Origin: Phycisphaeraceae bacterium
GTDB lineage: Bacteria; Planctomycetota; Phycisphaerae; Phycisphaerales; Phycisphaeraceae
Assembly: GCA_003551485.1 (NCBI GenBank)
Contig: PUMS01000100.1
Span: 1-27,468, forward strand
DNA length: 27,468 bases
Direction of reading: 5' to 3'
The position numbers and the translations under genes were made by a program. Shown piece by piece: positions 12,087 to 18,627 of the stretch. A model generated the notes under the pieces. That model did no database searches. It was not told where the DNA came from and saw only the letters and a program-made list of their open reading frames with translations. Numbering within the stretch: the stretch's first letter is position 1; each line of letters starts with the position of its first letter.

Positions 12087-12839
12087 TTGACCACCTCGGC
12101 ACTCCCAGCGACCCCGATCGACCTCGATGCGGCCAACCGGCAACTCGCCGACGCCGATGCCCAGCGCATCATCCGCTGGGCGCGCGAGACCTTCGGCGAG
12201 GGCCTGGCGATGACCTCCAGCTTCGGCGCCCAGGCCGCGGTCATGCTCCACCTGGTCACGCGGATCGTACCCGACATCCCGGTGATCTTCATCGACACCG
12301 GCTACCTGTTTGCCGAGACCTACCACTTCGCCGAGCAACTGCGCCGGCGCCTGAACCTGAATCTGCACATCTACCAGCCCGAGATGAGCCCGGCGCGGAT
12401 GGAGGCGGTGTACGGCCGGCTCTGGGAAAAGGGCCTGGAAGGGCTCAACCGCTATGACCAGATCCGCAAGGTCGAGCCCATGCAGCGTGCCCTGCGCGAG
12501 TTGAACGTCACCGCCTGGCTGGCGGGTGTGCGTGGCGATCAGACCGAGCACCGCGCTGCTTTGCGCATCGTTGAAAAAAGCACGGAGGTCTACAAGGTCC
12601 ATCCCATCCTGAGCTGGCACCGCCAGGACGTCGACCGCTACATCAAGGACCACGATCTGCCCCTGCATCCGCTGGTGGCCAAGGGGTACACCTCGATCGG
12701 CGACCGCCACTCGACGCGACCGGTGAAGACCGGCGAAGATGAACGCGCCGGCCGCTTCCGCGGCCTCAAGACCGAGTGCGGCCTGCACCTGCCCCAGACC
12801 GTCGAAGAAGCCCAGAGCCGCGACGGCAGCGGTCTGTAA
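12087..12839 (+). CDS. cysH: Phosphoadenosine phosphosulfate (PAPS) reductase, type lacking the Fe-S cluster
   Basis: 3' part of ORF 10878..12839. TTG at 12087 after GAAAGGA. Motifs [46 protein letters not shown] and [13 protein letters not shown]. The CC and CxxC cluster ligands are absent (YDQIRK; SIGDRHST). Confidence 0.93.
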
Positions 12840-12866
12840 TGCCTGGTCTGAAAATCGCCCGGAAGA

Positions 12867-12886
12867 CCTCGCTCTACCCACCCTAC
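12867..12886 (-). repeat. Solitary half copy of the GTAG-type REP found at 23944-24161
   Basis: CCTCGCTCTACCCACCCTAC is identical over 20 nt to 24142-24161. Confidence 0.75.
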
Positions 12887-12905
12887 AGCATTCCTCGCCG
12901 AGGGG

Positions 12906-12934
12906 TTGTCGGCGTGGGCGGGTGGCGGTAGGAT
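12906..12934 (+). promoter_or_regulatory. sigma70-type promoter driving the cobalamin-riboswitch leader
   Basis: TTGTCG (12906-12911), 17-nt spacer, TAGGAT (12929-12934). It ends about 10 nt before the first riboswitch stem. Confidence 0.65.
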
Positions 12935-12944
12935 AGGGTTGCTT

Positions 12945-13177
12945 GACAGGTGCTCCCTGCCGCGCCGGCCTTGGGCCGGGGTGGCGGGGGGTGAAAAGGG
13001 AAGTGAGGTGACCGGACCTTCGGGGCCGGGATTCCTCCGCGGACGCGCCGCCGTGATGGGTGCTCGCCATCGAGGTGAGCGGCGCTGCCCACCATTGCCA
13101 CTGCCGGTCCCGACACGGGCCGGTGGGAAGGCGGGCAGCGGCCGGACGAACACCCAGAGCCGGAAGACCTGCCTGTC
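12945..13177 (+). promoter_or_regulatory. Cobalamin riboswitch (adenosylcobalamin / Cbl-I class)
   Basis: P1 GACAGG (12945-12950) pairs with CCTGTC (13172-13177). Also AAAAGGGAA..GAGGTG (12994-13010), GCGGACGCGCCGCCGTGA, GCCACTG (13097-13103), GGGAAGG (13125-13131) and the B12-box tail GAGCCGGAAGACCTGCC (13157-13173). Confidence 0.92.
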
Positions 13178-13346
13178 GGGTGCGAACGTGTGTCCTCGCG
13201 GTTGACAGGGACACCGGCCCGGCACTGTCTGCCTGCCCCGGACAGATTTCAAGCCGCTCGGTGCTCCGCCGCGGGTGACCCTTGTTGTCTCATGCAATAC
13301 AGGGCAGCGCCCCGCGCGAAACGGGGTGAGCACAGGAGCATCGCTT

Positions 13347-13964
13347 ATGCAATCGTGGAACGTTTCTCGAGGCTGTCGCTGCGCGCCGGGTTGGGCCCTG
13401 ATGCTGATGGCGGCCGTACTGCCGGCCGCGCCCGCAGCCGAGGCGGTTGTCCTGCCCGACCCGCTCGAGGTCGGAACCGGGCCGGACCGGGCCGAGCTTT
13501 ACATCGAGTTCAAGGATGGGGCGATCTTTCTGTTTGATGTCGGGTTTTCAGAGCAGGTGACGGGGCTGGAACTGCTTCAGATCGTTGAAGCGGAGACGCC
13601 GCTGGAACTGGTTCTTGAGGATTTCGGCTTTGGTCAGTTTGTGGATGGGATGCGTTTCGGTGGGCACGAGAACATCGGCTTCGGTGGGGGTGAGGACTGG
13701 TGGCATTACTGGGTTCGCGAACCGGGCGAGACGGACTGGCATTCTCCCCCGTTCGGCGCTGCGGATCGGACCGTGAACGATGGGGCCGCCGATGGCTGGA
13801 TCTATGGCCGTGCCGGCGAACCGATCTCCGAGTCGGCCATCCCCGAACCGGCCACTGCCCTGCTGGTGGGTGTGGGCGCAACGGTGTTGCTGGTGCGCCG
13901 CCGCCGCGACGGGGCGACGGGGCCGTCACGGCGCAGAGCGGGACAAGGCCAGGCAGGCTGGTGA
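13347..13964 (+). CDS. PEP-CTERM surface protein with a small transcobalamin-C-terminal / DUF4430-like domain (candidate B12-binding protein)
   Basis: ATG at 13347 after AGGAG. Signal peptide ending ...LPAAPAAEA. Core FVDGMRF...DWWHYWVRE..W.S..FGAADRTVNDGAADGWIYG resembles the DUF4430 pattern. IPEP-TM-RRRR sorting signal. The domain identity is by eye. Confidence 0.75.
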   Translation: MQSWNVSRGCRCAPGWALMLMAAVLPAAPAAEAVVLPDPLEVGTGPDRAELYIEFKDGAIFLFDVGFSEQVTGLELLQIVEAETPLELVLEDFGFGQFVDGMRFGGHENIGFGGGEDWWHYWVREPGETDWHSPPFGAADRTVNDGAADGWIYGRAGEPISESAIPEPATALLVGVGATVLLVRRRRDGATGPSRRRAGQGQAGW

Positions 13965-13987
13965 CTCACCAGAGTGGAGGATGAACC

Positions 13988-15220
13988 ATGAACCGCAGTA
14001 ATAGCCTCATGATGTCCGCCGCGGCGATCCTCACCGGCGCCGGGATGATTACTGTCCCGGCGCCGGGGGCCTTCGCCGCGGGTTTCGATCCGCTCGACTT
14101 CGCCGTCGAGGTGGTCGAGTATGTGCCGGGCGACGGTGTGGGCTTCGATATCATCAGCGGTCAGCCGTTCGACAACCCGCAGGTTGCACTGGGGCCGCCC
14201 ACGGTGGACACCACGGGCACCGGCTTCGAGATACCCGCCGACCAGGCGGTGCCCGTGGTGCCGGTTTACCCGGCGTTCCGCGCCCACGAACTGGTCACCA
14301 TTGGCGACGGCGGCTGGCTGACGTTGCGTTTCGGCCGGCCGGTCTACAACGACCCTTTCAACCCCTACGGCATCGACTTCATCATCTTCGGCAACGCAGC
14401 CCAGCAGATCGATGGCTTCCACGTCTGGAACAACGGCGACCCGAATCAGACCACCGTCGGCTCGGGTGCGATCACCGATCGCGGACGGGTGTCGGTCAGC
14501 CAGGATGGTGACACCTGGTACACGTTCACCGATGGCCCGTTCGCTGATGACTTCGCCCCGACGCTGGGGCGGGCATTTGACCCCGACAACCCCTACCGGC
14601 CCGACTCGGACTGGGACTGGAACCACTGGTGGGGCGGGCCGGCCGACCCAGGTGTGCCCCTGCCGCCCGGCGGAGAATTCGCTGACAAGGCCGGCCTGAC
14701 GGTGGCCGAGTATGCCCAGAGCTACCGCGACCCGGTCACGGGGCAGGTCTCGGCCGGCGGCACGGGCTTCGACCTGTCGTGGCTGGAGGTGGAAGGCGGG
14801 CTGGAGTGGATTCAGTACGTGCGGATCGAGCCGGCGGTGCAAGGGGCGAGGCCGGACATCGATGCGGTCTCGATCGTCCGGCCGCGCATCCCCGGTGATG
14901 CCAACCTCGATGGCCACGTGGACCTGCGCGATGCATCCATCCTGCTGGCCCACTGGGGACAGACCGATGTCACCTGGGTCCAGGGCGACTTCACCGGCGA
15001 TGGCGGCGTCGGCCCGGCCGACCTGGCGCTTCTGCTGGAAAACTGGAGCGGTCCCGCCCCGGCTCCCACGGCGATGTTCGATGCACTGGTGGTACCCGAG
15101 CCATCCGCATGGTGGCTGCTGGCCGCGGGTGCCGGCGGCTGCCTGCTGCGCCGCCGGCGCGGCGGGATCTCACTGCCCGTTCCCTCGGGGAGGCAACCAT
15201 GTTCTTTCGCACACCCATAG
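13988..15220 (+). CDS. Secreted PEP-CTERM protein with a type I dockerin-like repeat and an N-terminal BtuH-like / cell-surface domain
   Basis: ATG after GGAGGA. Signal peptide. Core [57 protein letters not shown]. Dockerin [22 protein letters not shown]...[21 protein letters not shown] (about 14894-15045). VPEP-TM-RRRR sorting signal. Confidence 0.8.
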
Positions 15221-16182
15221 CCATGAAACGCCCCCCGAACGGTGCCGGCTCCTGCCCCCCTCTCCCACCGGGAGAGGGGCCGGGGGTGAAGGAGGGTTCG
15301 GACAGGCCGCCGCGATTCTGCCCTCACCCCACTCCTCTCCCGGAGGGAGCGGGGGCCGGAGGGAGCCGGAGCCTCAGCCACGGGCAAACCCCGGTGTACC
15401 CGCCGGCCCAGCGCATCGGTTTTACGCTGATCGAACTGCTGGTGGTGGTCTCGATCATCGCAGTGCTGCTGGCGCTGCTGCTGCCGGCGCTTGCGGCGGT
15501 GCGCGGCGAAGGCTCGGCCGCGGTGTGCATGAGCAACGTCCGGCAGATGGCCACCGCCGCGCATGGCTACGCCGCTGACCATGGCGGCTACTACCCCCCT
15601 TCCTACTACACCCGCCAGGAAGGCGGCCGGATGGTCAGCTACAACTGGGACTTCACCACCTGGCGCGACTGGTCCAACCCCGGCAGCGGCATCGAGGTCG
15701 GCGGCGGCCTGCTGTGGCGCGGCCGGGAAGTGAGCGAAATCCAGCAATGCCCGGCCTTCGACGGGGCCAGCAACACACCGGCCGACCCCCACACCGGCTA
15801 CAACTACAACACCAGCTACATCGGCCGCGACGAGTCGCGCCGGCCCGCCGGCGCGGTGCCGCCGGGCTGGTTCCCACCCCCAGCGCGGCTGGCGGCGGTG
15901 TCGCGCCCGGCCCGGACGGCGCTGTTCGGCGATGGCGAGTACGCCGCCGGCGCCAACAAGTTCATGCGCGCCCCCTGGCCCAGCGCCAGCGACGGCTTCA
16001 CCCACCGCCACGCCGGCACACAGGGCTACCGCCACCGCGGCCGCACCACCGTGGCCTTCGCCGACGGCCACGCCCGCGGCTGGTCAAAGCGCCACACGCA
16101 GACGCTGGCGGCAGTGCAGGACCAGATCGCCGACGGCACGGGCTTCCTTTCACCGGACAACAGCCTCTACGACCTGGACTGA
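15199..16182 (+). CDS. Type IV prepilin-like (N-terminal methylation) protein with a C-terminal H-X9-DG motif (DUF1559-like pseudopilin)
   Basis: G|[24 protein letters not shown] (cleavage between 15420 and 15421), C-x-[17 protein letters not shown] and [12 protein letters not shown] (exact H-X9-DG, 16033-16068). The start is uncertain: ATG 15199 has a GGGGAGG RBS, and ATG 15223 and GTG 15394 are alternatives. Confidence 0.88.
15255..15357. repeat. Inverted pair of CCCTCTCCC..GGGAGAGGG-type REP-like palindromes
   Basis: CCCCCCTCTCCCACCGGGAGAGGGGCCGGGGGTGAAGG (15255-15292) and GCCCTCACCCCACTCCTCTCCCGGAGGGAGCGGGGGCC (15320-15357) are imperfect reverse complements, and each contains an internal hairpin. 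Confidence 0.75.
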
Positions 16183-16356
16183 ACCGCCGCGGCCTGATTG
16201 ATGGACTGCACAGGCCAACCGTGAGCATCGTTCCCCATCCGTCATCCCACGATCGCGTGCATCTGCGGGGCCAACCCATCCATATTGCAGAGGAGGATCA
16301 CCGAAGACGTCTGTGGTTGCGGGGAACCGTTCGCAGTCGGTTGTGACGTGAGGGGG

Positions 16357-18153
<1,797 letters not shown>

Positions 18154-18430
18154 GCGGTTACAATCACAACTCGCGGCCGGGCCCCCTCGCGGGGCGGACC
18201 GGGGCGGTGCCGCCGGGGGCGGGTGGGGCAGGTGGGACCAGAGATTATACGGGGATGGCCGCGAGCCCGGGGGCAGCAGCAAGCGGGCATAAGGCAGCGG
18301 GGTGTGCCGAAAACCCCCGCCCCCTTCAAGCCCCCAGCAGACCACCCATAGCCTGTCGAAGGGGCATGAGAGGACGTCGGCTTGCCCCCGACATTTCCGT
18401 TGAGCGTCCACACACAGATTCTTCGCGTGG

Positions 18431-18554: not shown

Positions 18555-18627
18555 TGGCCCGTAGTTCAATTGGCAGAACGCCTGACTCTGGATCAGGAGG
18601 TTCCAGGTTCGACCCCTGGCGGGCCAG
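18555..18627 (+). tRNA. tRNA-Gln (anticodon CTG); 3' CCA not encoded
   Basis: Acceptor stem TGGCCCG/CGGGCCA with the U1-A72 pair typical of Gln, D-arm GTTC..GAAC, anticodon arm CCTGA-CTCTGGA-TCAGG, T-arm CCAGG-TTCGACC-CCTGG. The discriminator G is followed by CTT. Confidence 0.97.

Follow-up and report, generated by a model that had tools for sequence, protein, structure and literature searches.

A cobalamin riboswitch joined to a dedicated DUF1559 pseudopilin and PEP-CTERM proteins: a candidate corrinoid acquisition cassette in Planctomycetota

The DNA considered here, hereafter the window, comprises the 27,468 nt at positions 1 to 27,468 of contig PUMS01000100.1 from a Phycisphaeraceae bacterium (assembly GCA_003551485.1), and it carries a cobalamin riboswitch followed on the same strand by three co-oriented open reading frames (ORFs), p1, p2 and p3, which are proposed to form a corrinoid acquisition cassette. 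The analysis is computational throughout; the protein folds are predictions, and the ORFs in loci fetched from other genomes come from a simple calling of our own. The aptamer lies at 12931-13190 on the forward strand and matches Rfam RF00174 over the full length of the model (positions 1-189), with 47.4 bits (gathering score 31.5, E 3.9e-9) and a well-formed B12 box. An earlier note on this DNA, made from the letters alone, had claimed an adenosylcobalamin (AdoCbl)-class riboswitch, and the Rfam search that it proposed as a check agrees on a cobalamin riboswitch. The lowered score is due to three long insertions in the peripheral loops. This is the only RF00174 copy in the window's own genome, a metagenome-assembled genome (MAG) that is 71% complete. 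A genuine riboswitch at this place supports a probable control of the unit by cobalamin. The leader between the aptamer and the p1 start (13191-13346) holds an AGGAG ribosome-binding site at about 13335. The promoter that the same note had placed upstream was lost on inspection: the hexamers TTGTCG-17-TAGGAT (12906-12934, forward strand) are weak and without support, agree with the consensus at 8 of 12 positions, which is no better than chance, and overlap the start of the Rfam match with their second half, and a sigma-70 consensus scan of 12800-16400 found no promoter. The three genes (13347-13964, 13988-15220 and a third ending at 16182) run up to the convergent lepA (EF4; 16357-18159, reverse strand), which closes the unit as had been described; its product matches TIGR01393 with 922.8 bits (cut-off 533.9).

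The first gene, p1 (13347-13964, forward strand), encodes 205 amino acids (aa): a signal peptide is followed by a domain of about 130 aa, and the C terminus is a PEP-CTERM tail. Its frame is open from GTG 13275, and ATG 13347 is the most likely start because the AGGAG lies upstream of it and the resulting signal peptide resembles those of the homologues. The tail reaches 20.4 bits in TIGR02595 (cut-off 16) and 19.1 bits in Pfam PF07589, just below the cut-off of 20.7, which agrees with the first reading of p1 as a PEP-CTERM protein. The p1 family has 86 close clusters, and a profile search of 1.8 billion representative sequences put its size at 331 clusters at E<=1e-10; the members named in their sources are proteins of Planctomycetota MAGs. 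Invariant His, Trp and Gly residues fall within the pattern H-x-N-x-G-F-G-G-G-E-D-W-W-H-Y-W ... D-G-W-I-Y-G. When the AlphaFold2 model of p1 (predicted local distance difference test, pLDDT, 82.9) was compared with the Protein Data Bank (PDB) by Foldseek, the top 18 matches were transcobalamin, haptocorrin, intrinsic factor, the isolated transcobalamin beta domain and 3u7z, a DUF4430 protein. Their probabilities were 0.99-1.0, with a template modelling (TM) score of 0.64-0.69 to the isolated beta domain; the matches that followed were unrelated ubiquitin-like folds of low probability. By this model, the p1 domain has a predicted fold like that of the DUF4430 type (PF14478) or of the beta domain with which transcobalamin binds B12, and no other fold came up at probability 1.0. 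It also shares with them a motif of the type W-x-Y ... D-G-D/W-I-x-Y. Unlike transcobalamin, p1 lacks an alpha domain; its one domain stands alone, followed by the PEP-CTERM tail.

The second gene, p2 (13988-15220, forward strand), follows after a gap of 23 nt and encodes 410 aa. Between the signal peptide and a dockerin followed by a PEP-CTERM tail lies a conserved domain of about 270 aa for which Pfam has no family. The signal of p2 is of the Sec type and not that of a lipoprotein. The tail scores 26.3 bits in TIGR02595 (cut-off 16) and 19.8 bits in PF07589, just below the cut-off of 20.7. The dockerin stays below the Pfam cut-off (19.8 bits against 22.9), and the p2-family profile finds solved dockerins at E 1.8e-6 and the p2 model matches 2y3n_B with TM 0.79, so that its description as a PEP-CTERM plus dockerin protein stands. 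A total of 556 p2 homologues were found. The best PDB match of the AlphaFold2 model (pLDDT 86.1, Foldseek) is 8blw_B at E 2.9e-9 and probability 1.0, with a global TM of 0.28 and a root-mean-square deviation of 15 A; the next matches are about a million-fold weaker and are jelly-roll carbohydrate-binding modules (E>4e-3). Chain B of 8BLW is the Bacteroides thetaiotaomicron lipoprotein BtuG1, a BtuGH fusion with a BtuH-type B12-binding domain (PMC13616437). By predicted fold, the domain of about 270 aa is a candidate BtuH-like domain. In the ESM Atlas, p2 resembles unnamed clusters and a cluster named 'LIC_13355 family lipoprotein' (0.91).

The third gene, p3 (15394-16182, forward strand), encodes a prepilin-type DUF1559/H-X9-DG pseudopilin of 262 aa whose start is uncertain, with ATG 15199 and ATG 15223 as alternatives. 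The frame is open back to 15109, which accounts for the overlap with p2 that the earlier note had described, and starts at ATG 15109 or 15199 would give a leader of 65-95 aa. A palindromic doublet resembling repetitive extragenic palindromic (REP) elements or miniature inverted-repeat transposable elements (MITEs) lies between p2 and p3 (15255-15360, about 105 nt, no strand assigned) and recurs throughout the contigs of the window's genome, with more than 200 matches by blastn. Because this repeat is dispersed and the homologous pilins have short leaders, the probable start is GTG 15394, with a 9-residue leader before G|FTLIE. The long leader was rejected as genuine coding sequence since it consists of the dispersed repeat. 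It is likelier that p2 and p3 are separated by a 173-nt spacer holding the REP-like element; of the tight spacing claimed at first, the 23-nt gap between p1 and p2 remains and the overlap probably does not. The doublet may influence how stable the mRNA is, or uncouple p3 from the two genes before it.

The nature of p3 as an N-methylation prepilin with H-X9-DG, which the earlier note had also recognised, is borne out by PF07963 (N_methyl, 25.9 bits, cut-off 21.2), TIGR02532 (22.8, cut-off 16.3) and PF07596 (DUF1559/SBP_bac_10, 27.1, cut-off 23.3). The H-X9-DG motif is legible directly and conserved in the subfamily alignment as H214-x9-D224-G225. The protein has a class III signal peptide with G/A-F-T-L-I-E, in which Glu5 is invariant among all 23 aligned members, and the N-terminal helix of the family is homologous to those of solved pilins and GspG (E 9e-13 to 6e-7). 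In these respects p3 is like the pseudopilins of type II secretion and the type IV and competence pilins (GspG, PilA, ComGC). Unlike them, it has a DUF1559/H-X9-DG globular domain, is encoded outside any secretion or pilus cluster and lies under a vitamin riboswitch. None of the NCBIfam equivalogs compared was reached (GspG 32.2 bits against 88.85, ComGC 29.1 against 75, GspH 21.5 against 80), and in the ESM Atlas p3 falls among generic DUF1559 clusters.

Proteins of this type form a large family to which no function has been assigned; for example, Planctopirus limnophila has 68 DUF1559/H-X9-DG prepilin-like paralogues (PMC10632474). Like these paralogues, p3 passes the Pfam threshold and has the motif; unlike them, it belongs to a separable subfamily tied to the cobalamin riboswitch. 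The window's own genome has at least 24 ORFs with a prepilin motif. In a maximum-likelihood tree, the 22 riboswitch-linked pilins (p3 and 21 homologues) fall into one group with a support of 93 in the Shimodaira-Hasegawa-like approximate likelihood-ratio test (SH-aLRT); this group includes one very long-branched ORF of the window's own genome, and the other 22 of its 23 paralogues lie outside. The subfamily profile gives 281 bits to p3 and 108-114 bits to the next paralogue of that genome. Similarly, in each of five genomes from other families or classes the sole full-length match to the profile (178-228 bits) was the copy adjacent to the riboswitch, and the 49-117 further candidates per genome reached at most 116 bits with a partial match from the N-terminal end of the profile. 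By tree and profile, the riboswitch-linked pilins are best classed as a dedicated DUF1559 subfamily.

The linkage of riboswitch and pilin is conserved among the relatives. The survey covered 31 genomes, the window's own and its 30 nearest relatives from the genus, family and order. RF00174 was found in 29 of the 31 (the window's own and 28 of the 30 relatives), nearly always as one copy. Of the 30 riboswitch loci, 29 are followed on the same strand by a full-length pilin of the p3 type (164-331 bits), and every one of the 28 riboswitch-bearing relatives is represented among them; 7 of these 29 pilins were not used in building the profile. The single exception is the second riboswitch of G002, which precedes a BtuFCD-type transporter. 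Contigs with p1 or p2 homologues keep the riboswitch and the gene order (L002, L003, L005/L006, L007 and L008; RF00174 57-116 bits). The relative G003 (99% complete) did not match RF00174. Its best p3-like gene is preceded by a match to AdoCbl-II (RF01689, L110:571-673) with 31.7 bits, below the gathering score of 36.5, which may represent a second aptamer class controlling the p3 gene family.

The genes between the riboswitch and the pilin vary. The p2 family is clear in about 12 of the 30 loci and p1 in 2-4, so that of the conserved association with a gene trio that the earlier note had expected, the link of riboswitch and pilin held and the trio as such did not. In the same-genus relative G001 (151 bits) and in G016, the place is taken by a protein with DUF4465 and PEP-CTERM; likewise, a cassette of G121 has DUF4465 in the p1/p2 position (191 bits). 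DUF4465 is the BtuJ family, in which B12 binding has been shown for divergent members (PMC13398666). The genus g19 has a pyrroloquinoline quinone (PQQ)-like propeller with a dockerin between riboswitch and pilin. Several further PEP-CTERM proteins occupy this place and have the anchor alone in common with p1 and p2. When other first-gene families (c3, c4, c8, c26 and c33) were tried as kin of p1 and p2, hhalign matched the PEP-CTERM tail only, and they are therefore different domains. Across these loci, the pilin appears as the constant part and the putative binders as interchangeable.

Several database proteins of 631-655 aa are read-throughs of cassette genes. For example, P0091 and P0141 (L007:6001-7968) join the p2 domain, dockerin, PEP-CTERM helix, an Arg-rich linker, the prepilin motif and DUF1559 in one chain, and a riboswitch of 116 bits lies upstream of P0091. 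The topology of this fusion is self-consistent: the PEP-CTERM helix passes inward through the membrane, its basic tail is at the same time the prepilin leader in the cytoplasm, and the pilin helix leads outward again. Other fusions join p1, PEP-CTERM and p2 in G031 (L103:3359-5017), an N-terminal domain of about 290 aa and the pilin in G003 (L110:619-2295), and another N-terminal domain and p2 in P0118 (L008:6001-7947). The fusions agree with one another in membrane topology.

The genes on the 3' side of the pilin are a separate observation. A small BFD-like [2Fe-2S] protein of about 100 aa is encoded there in six relatives (L043, L049, L055, L056, L060 and L061) and a thioredoxin-reductase-like flavoprotein in L054, L057, L061 and L103; these could provide a step of corrinoid reduction or processing. 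A ComF-like gene with a double zinc ribbon and a phosphoribosyltransferase lies directly 3' of the pilin in three loci (L002:8429-9208, L003:8466-9224 and L005:8427-9278), and a small double-zinc-ribbon gene directly follows it in L100:4476-4871. ComF proteins work with competence pili in DNA uptake. The adjacency to the pilin may be coincidental synteny.

The association extends beyond the near relatives. In a sample of 150 further Planctomycetota genomes, which are not independent of each other, RF00174 was found in 129 (130 of 151 with the window's own), mostly as one copy. Among 40 riboswitch loci inspected from about 35 families, a TonB-dependent receptor is present in 9, often with ExbB or BtuFCD, a p3-type pilin in 8, and both in none; these counts depend on the sample and on simple ORF calling and are uncorrected for phylogeny. 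Several riboswitch-led runs join the pilin to parts of the periplasmic importer. These include L088 (pilin with BtuF, BtuD, DUF4465 and a p2-like gene), L100 (pilin with BtuF, BtuC and BtuD) and L090 (pilin with a lipoprotein, a PP-loop protein, DUF6580 and BtuF). A replacement of BtuF by the pilin was rejected, as BtuF occurs in the same operons. The riboswitch of L079, L087, L090, L093 and L100 is followed by the pilin and by no PEP-CTERM binder; the pilin there stands by itself or has as partners a small lipoprotein, or BtuF/BtuCD and DUF6580. Hence the role of the pilin would be independent of p1 and p2.

Other genes recur in these loci. A protein termed d2 (459-527 aa, no Pfam match) is the first gene in 8 of the 40 loci (L071, L075, L081, L083, L085, L091, L094 and L105); it is sometimes followed by BtuF-BtuC-BtuD and is a further occupant of the 'BtuB slot'. 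Diphthami_syn_2 (PF01902, PP-loop) lies within the riboswitch-led pilin cassettes L046:2245-3015, L090:2718-3416 and L104, and the DUF6580 membrane protein within L079:2940-3797 and L090:2083-2718. A possible link of DUF6580 to BtuM was tested by sequence against the PDB and gave no relative, and the term was absent from the literature searched.

The lineage is B12-auxotrophic and MetH-dependent. The B12-activation domain of MetH is present in 30 of the 31 genomes, including the window's own, and CbiC in none of the 31, and therefore the lineage needs imported corrinoid. FecCD-type permeases were matched in all 31 genomes, in the window's own only weakly (34.8 bits) and in the relatives strongly. 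Neither a TonB-dependent receptor nor a BtuFCD importer of the ATP-binding cassette (ABC) type is encoded in the operon or in the 27-kb window. The earlier note's 'no BtuB or ABC transporter' thus stands for the operon; the FecCD matches contradict it as a statement on ABC transporters genome-wide. In 16 of the 31 genomes, including 11 of the 23 of high quality, several of them closed, the search for a TonB-dependent barrel found none. The window's own genome gave no PF00593 match, and since it is 71% complete, the point on missing BtuB rests on the 11 high-quality relatives. The machinery that the exported products would need is present in the window's own genome, with two exosortases (PF09721, 162 and 156 bits), a prepilin peptidase (PF01478, 60 bits), at least four secretins (PF00263) and at least nine assembly ATPases of the T2SS-E type (PF00437). 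None of the genes for prepilin peptidase, assembly ATPase or secretin is within or adjoining the cassette.

The closest known system is the Btu relay of Bacteroides thetaiotaomicron, in which the surface lipoproteins BtuJ, BtuH and BtuG act with BtuB and then BtuFCD under cobalamin riboswitches (PMC13616437, PMC8941943, PMC13398666). Both have riboswitch loci with several interchangeable surface proteins, which are B12 binders in Bacteroides and predicted to be so here. The likeness may extend to the predicted fold of p2, whose best match is the BtuH-bearing BtuG1 (8blw_B), and extends to the sister cassettes with DUF4465 of the BtuJ family; the propeller-plus-dockerin protein of g19 recalls BtuG loosely. 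The differences are that the proteins described here are anchored by PEP-CTERM and exosortase and often have a dockerin, whereas those of Bacteroides have a lipoprotein signal; that the locus has no BtuB; and that its constant part is a DUF1559 pseudopilin without a Bacteroides counterpart. Sequence similarity to the Bacteroides proteins is undetectable. For these reasons, the cassette is not counted as a member of the Btu relay.

The reading preferred here, to which we give a probability of roughly 55%, is that the unit serves a B12-auxotrophic, MetH-dependent planctomycete as a cassette for corrinoid acquisition, repressed by B12, in which the pilin works at a step before BtuFCD. At low intracellular cobalamin, the riboswitch would permit the expression of the three genes, B12 being the putative repressor. 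The p1 and p2 proteins would be exported and then processed or anchored through their PEP-CTERM tails by exosortase, and p1 (transcobalamin-beta-like) and p2 (BtuH-like) would capture corrinoids on the cell surface or within the envelope. The p3 protein would be processed by prepilin peptidase and built into a machine like those of type II secretion or type IV pili, where it would act between the capture outside and a periplasmic importer of the BtuF-BtuCD type encoded elsewhere. This step is the one done by the TonB-dependent BtuB in other bacteria. The repression, the binding of ligand by p1 and p2, their surface location and the physical role of the pilin are what we infer from the features described above.

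Several observations weigh against this reading. The window's own genome is a MAG of 3.35 Mb in 494 contigs at the completeness given above, and no RNA run contains the window, which was found in DNA runs only. As to the control by B12, no intrinsic terminator was found in 12800-16400, the stability of the folded leader was no better than that of shuffled sequence (z 0.24), and no clear helix sequestering the ribosome-binding site was found in it. The 173-nt REP spacer makes the co-transcription of p2 and p3 in this window an assumption. For p1, the Foldseek E-values are modest, at about 7e-3; p1 and ten long members of its family gave no match to Pfam DUF4430 (PF14478) at E<=0.1, and the p1 profile found no sequence in the PDB better than E 1.3 and no solved B12 binder. 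With no link to DUF4430 at the level of sequence, the likeness of p1 is one of fold and not of family membership. For p2, the global agreement with 8blw_B is low, BtuH2 (7BIZ) is not among the top 50 matches of the model, and the p2 profile finds dockerins alone among the PDB sequences, with no BtuH-type match. The globular part of p3 (about 190 aa) has no solved relative in the PDB, and nothing in it is known to bind B12. Lastly, half of the relatives carry TonB-dependent receptors elsewhere in the genome, and the pilin therefore need not replace BtuB.

How the pilin would act within the cassette can be taken further. Its position in the slot of the outer-membrane B12 importer points to an undescribed route of B12 capture, and a carriage of B12 through the envelope by the pilin itself is something that we can only infer. 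In its most specific form, a DUF1559 pilin on a retractile or piston-like pilus or pseudopilus passing through a secretin would carry B12 across the outer membrane in the place of BtuB, either directly or by docking the dockerin-bearing binders, and by extension the DUF1559/H-X9-DG paralogues, of which a genome has dozens, would be substrate-specific uptake pilins. Retracting competence pili take up DNA and are a precedent for import by pilins. This form is tentative and, taken as a whole, more probably wrong than right. A role in carriage or relay is nonetheless favoured over the adaptor and receptor roles considered below, on four grounds: the pilin is the part that stays constant, its Glu5 is retained, BtuF occurs together with it, and BtuB and the pilin alternate.

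The pilin may instead serve export or display, as a minor pseudopilin that lets the type II secretion machine bring the PEP-CTERM and dockerin binders to the surface, with B12 entering through a porin, d2 or a TonB-dependent receptor. Pseudopilins are classically parts of secretion and the p3-family profile matches GspG- and PilA-type helices; the p2-p3 read-through fusions would fit a pair of substrate and adaptor, and 15 of the 31 genomes have TonB-dependent receptors. An adaptor is hard to reconcile with the five loci where the pilin follows the riboswitch and no PEP-CTERM binder is present, nor does the entry through a receptor suit the 11 high-quality relatives lacking any TonB-dependent barrel. 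Such an adaptor role is considered unlikely.

Also unlikely is a pilin that never enters a fibre and, after cleavage, is held in the inner membrane by its N-terminal helix, receiving or chaperoning corrinoids in the periplasm and passing B12 on to BtuF/BtuCD. The idea draws on the shared operons with BtuF, BtuC and BtuD genes in L088, L090 and L100, on the Pfam name SBP_bac_10, which is in the style of solute-binding proteins, and on the cassette's having no assembly ATPase or secretin gene of its own. Yet the invariant Glu5 is required for fibre assembly and not for anchoring, the co-occurring BtuF homologues would make a second periplasmic binder redundant, and the crossing of the outer membrane by a 1.3-kDa ligand would be left unexplained in genomes without a TonB-dependent receptor. 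A role outside uptake, in which B12 starvation induces adhesins and a pilus for attachment to B12 producers (algae, cyanobacteria, other bacteria) or for a change of surface or biofilm state, would suit PEP-CTERM proteins, dockerins and pilins, which are typical of adhesion and matrix functions, and Planctomycetes, which are often attached to phototrophs, but it is very improbable because the predicted folds of p1 and p2 both resemble B12 binders specifically, variants of the cassette carry the demonstrated B12 binder DUF4465, and the pilin shares operons with BtuFCD.

Surface capture of B12 under riboswitch control, as proposed for this cassette, is of a known kind. The full-text literature searched held no paper linking a cobalamin riboswitch with a pseudopilin, DUF1559 or PEP-CTERM proteins, and assigned no ligand or regulator to any DUF1559/H-X9-DG member. 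That the import mechanism is categorically new has roughly one chance in four.

The rest of the 27-kb window consists of housekeeping genes without a link to B12, among them cysH, EPSP synthase, RtcB and an ABC exporter. A tRNA gene lies just past lepA (18555-18627; Rfam tRNA, 66.5 bits). The sole thiamine pyrophosphate (TPP) riboswitch of the window's genome (72.8 bits, G000:C248:2276-2380, reverse strand) precedes an ORF of 633 aa and no pilin. The DNA runs that contain the window sequence come from metagenomes of salt and soda lakes.

B12 is a keystone micronutrient, and the way in which auxotrophs obtain it shapes microbial communities. The outer steps of its uptake are largely uncharted beyond Proteobacteria and the gut Bacteroides. 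The lineage described here needs B12, is unable to build the corrin ring, often has no TonB-dependent receptor, and has a single riboswitch that points at a pilin and exchangeable surface binders. Two candidate families of B12 binders are defined by p1 (about 330 sequence clusters) and p2 (several hundred homologues). The reading of DUF1559 proteins as uptake pilins, if true, would give a molecular form to the long-suspected 'fishing-rod' uptake, and nutrient import by pili would be opened to direct experiment. Few paralogous families of Planctomycetota are as large as DUF1559, and if the proposal holds, one of its subfamilies would gain a ligand, a regulator and a testable phenotype.

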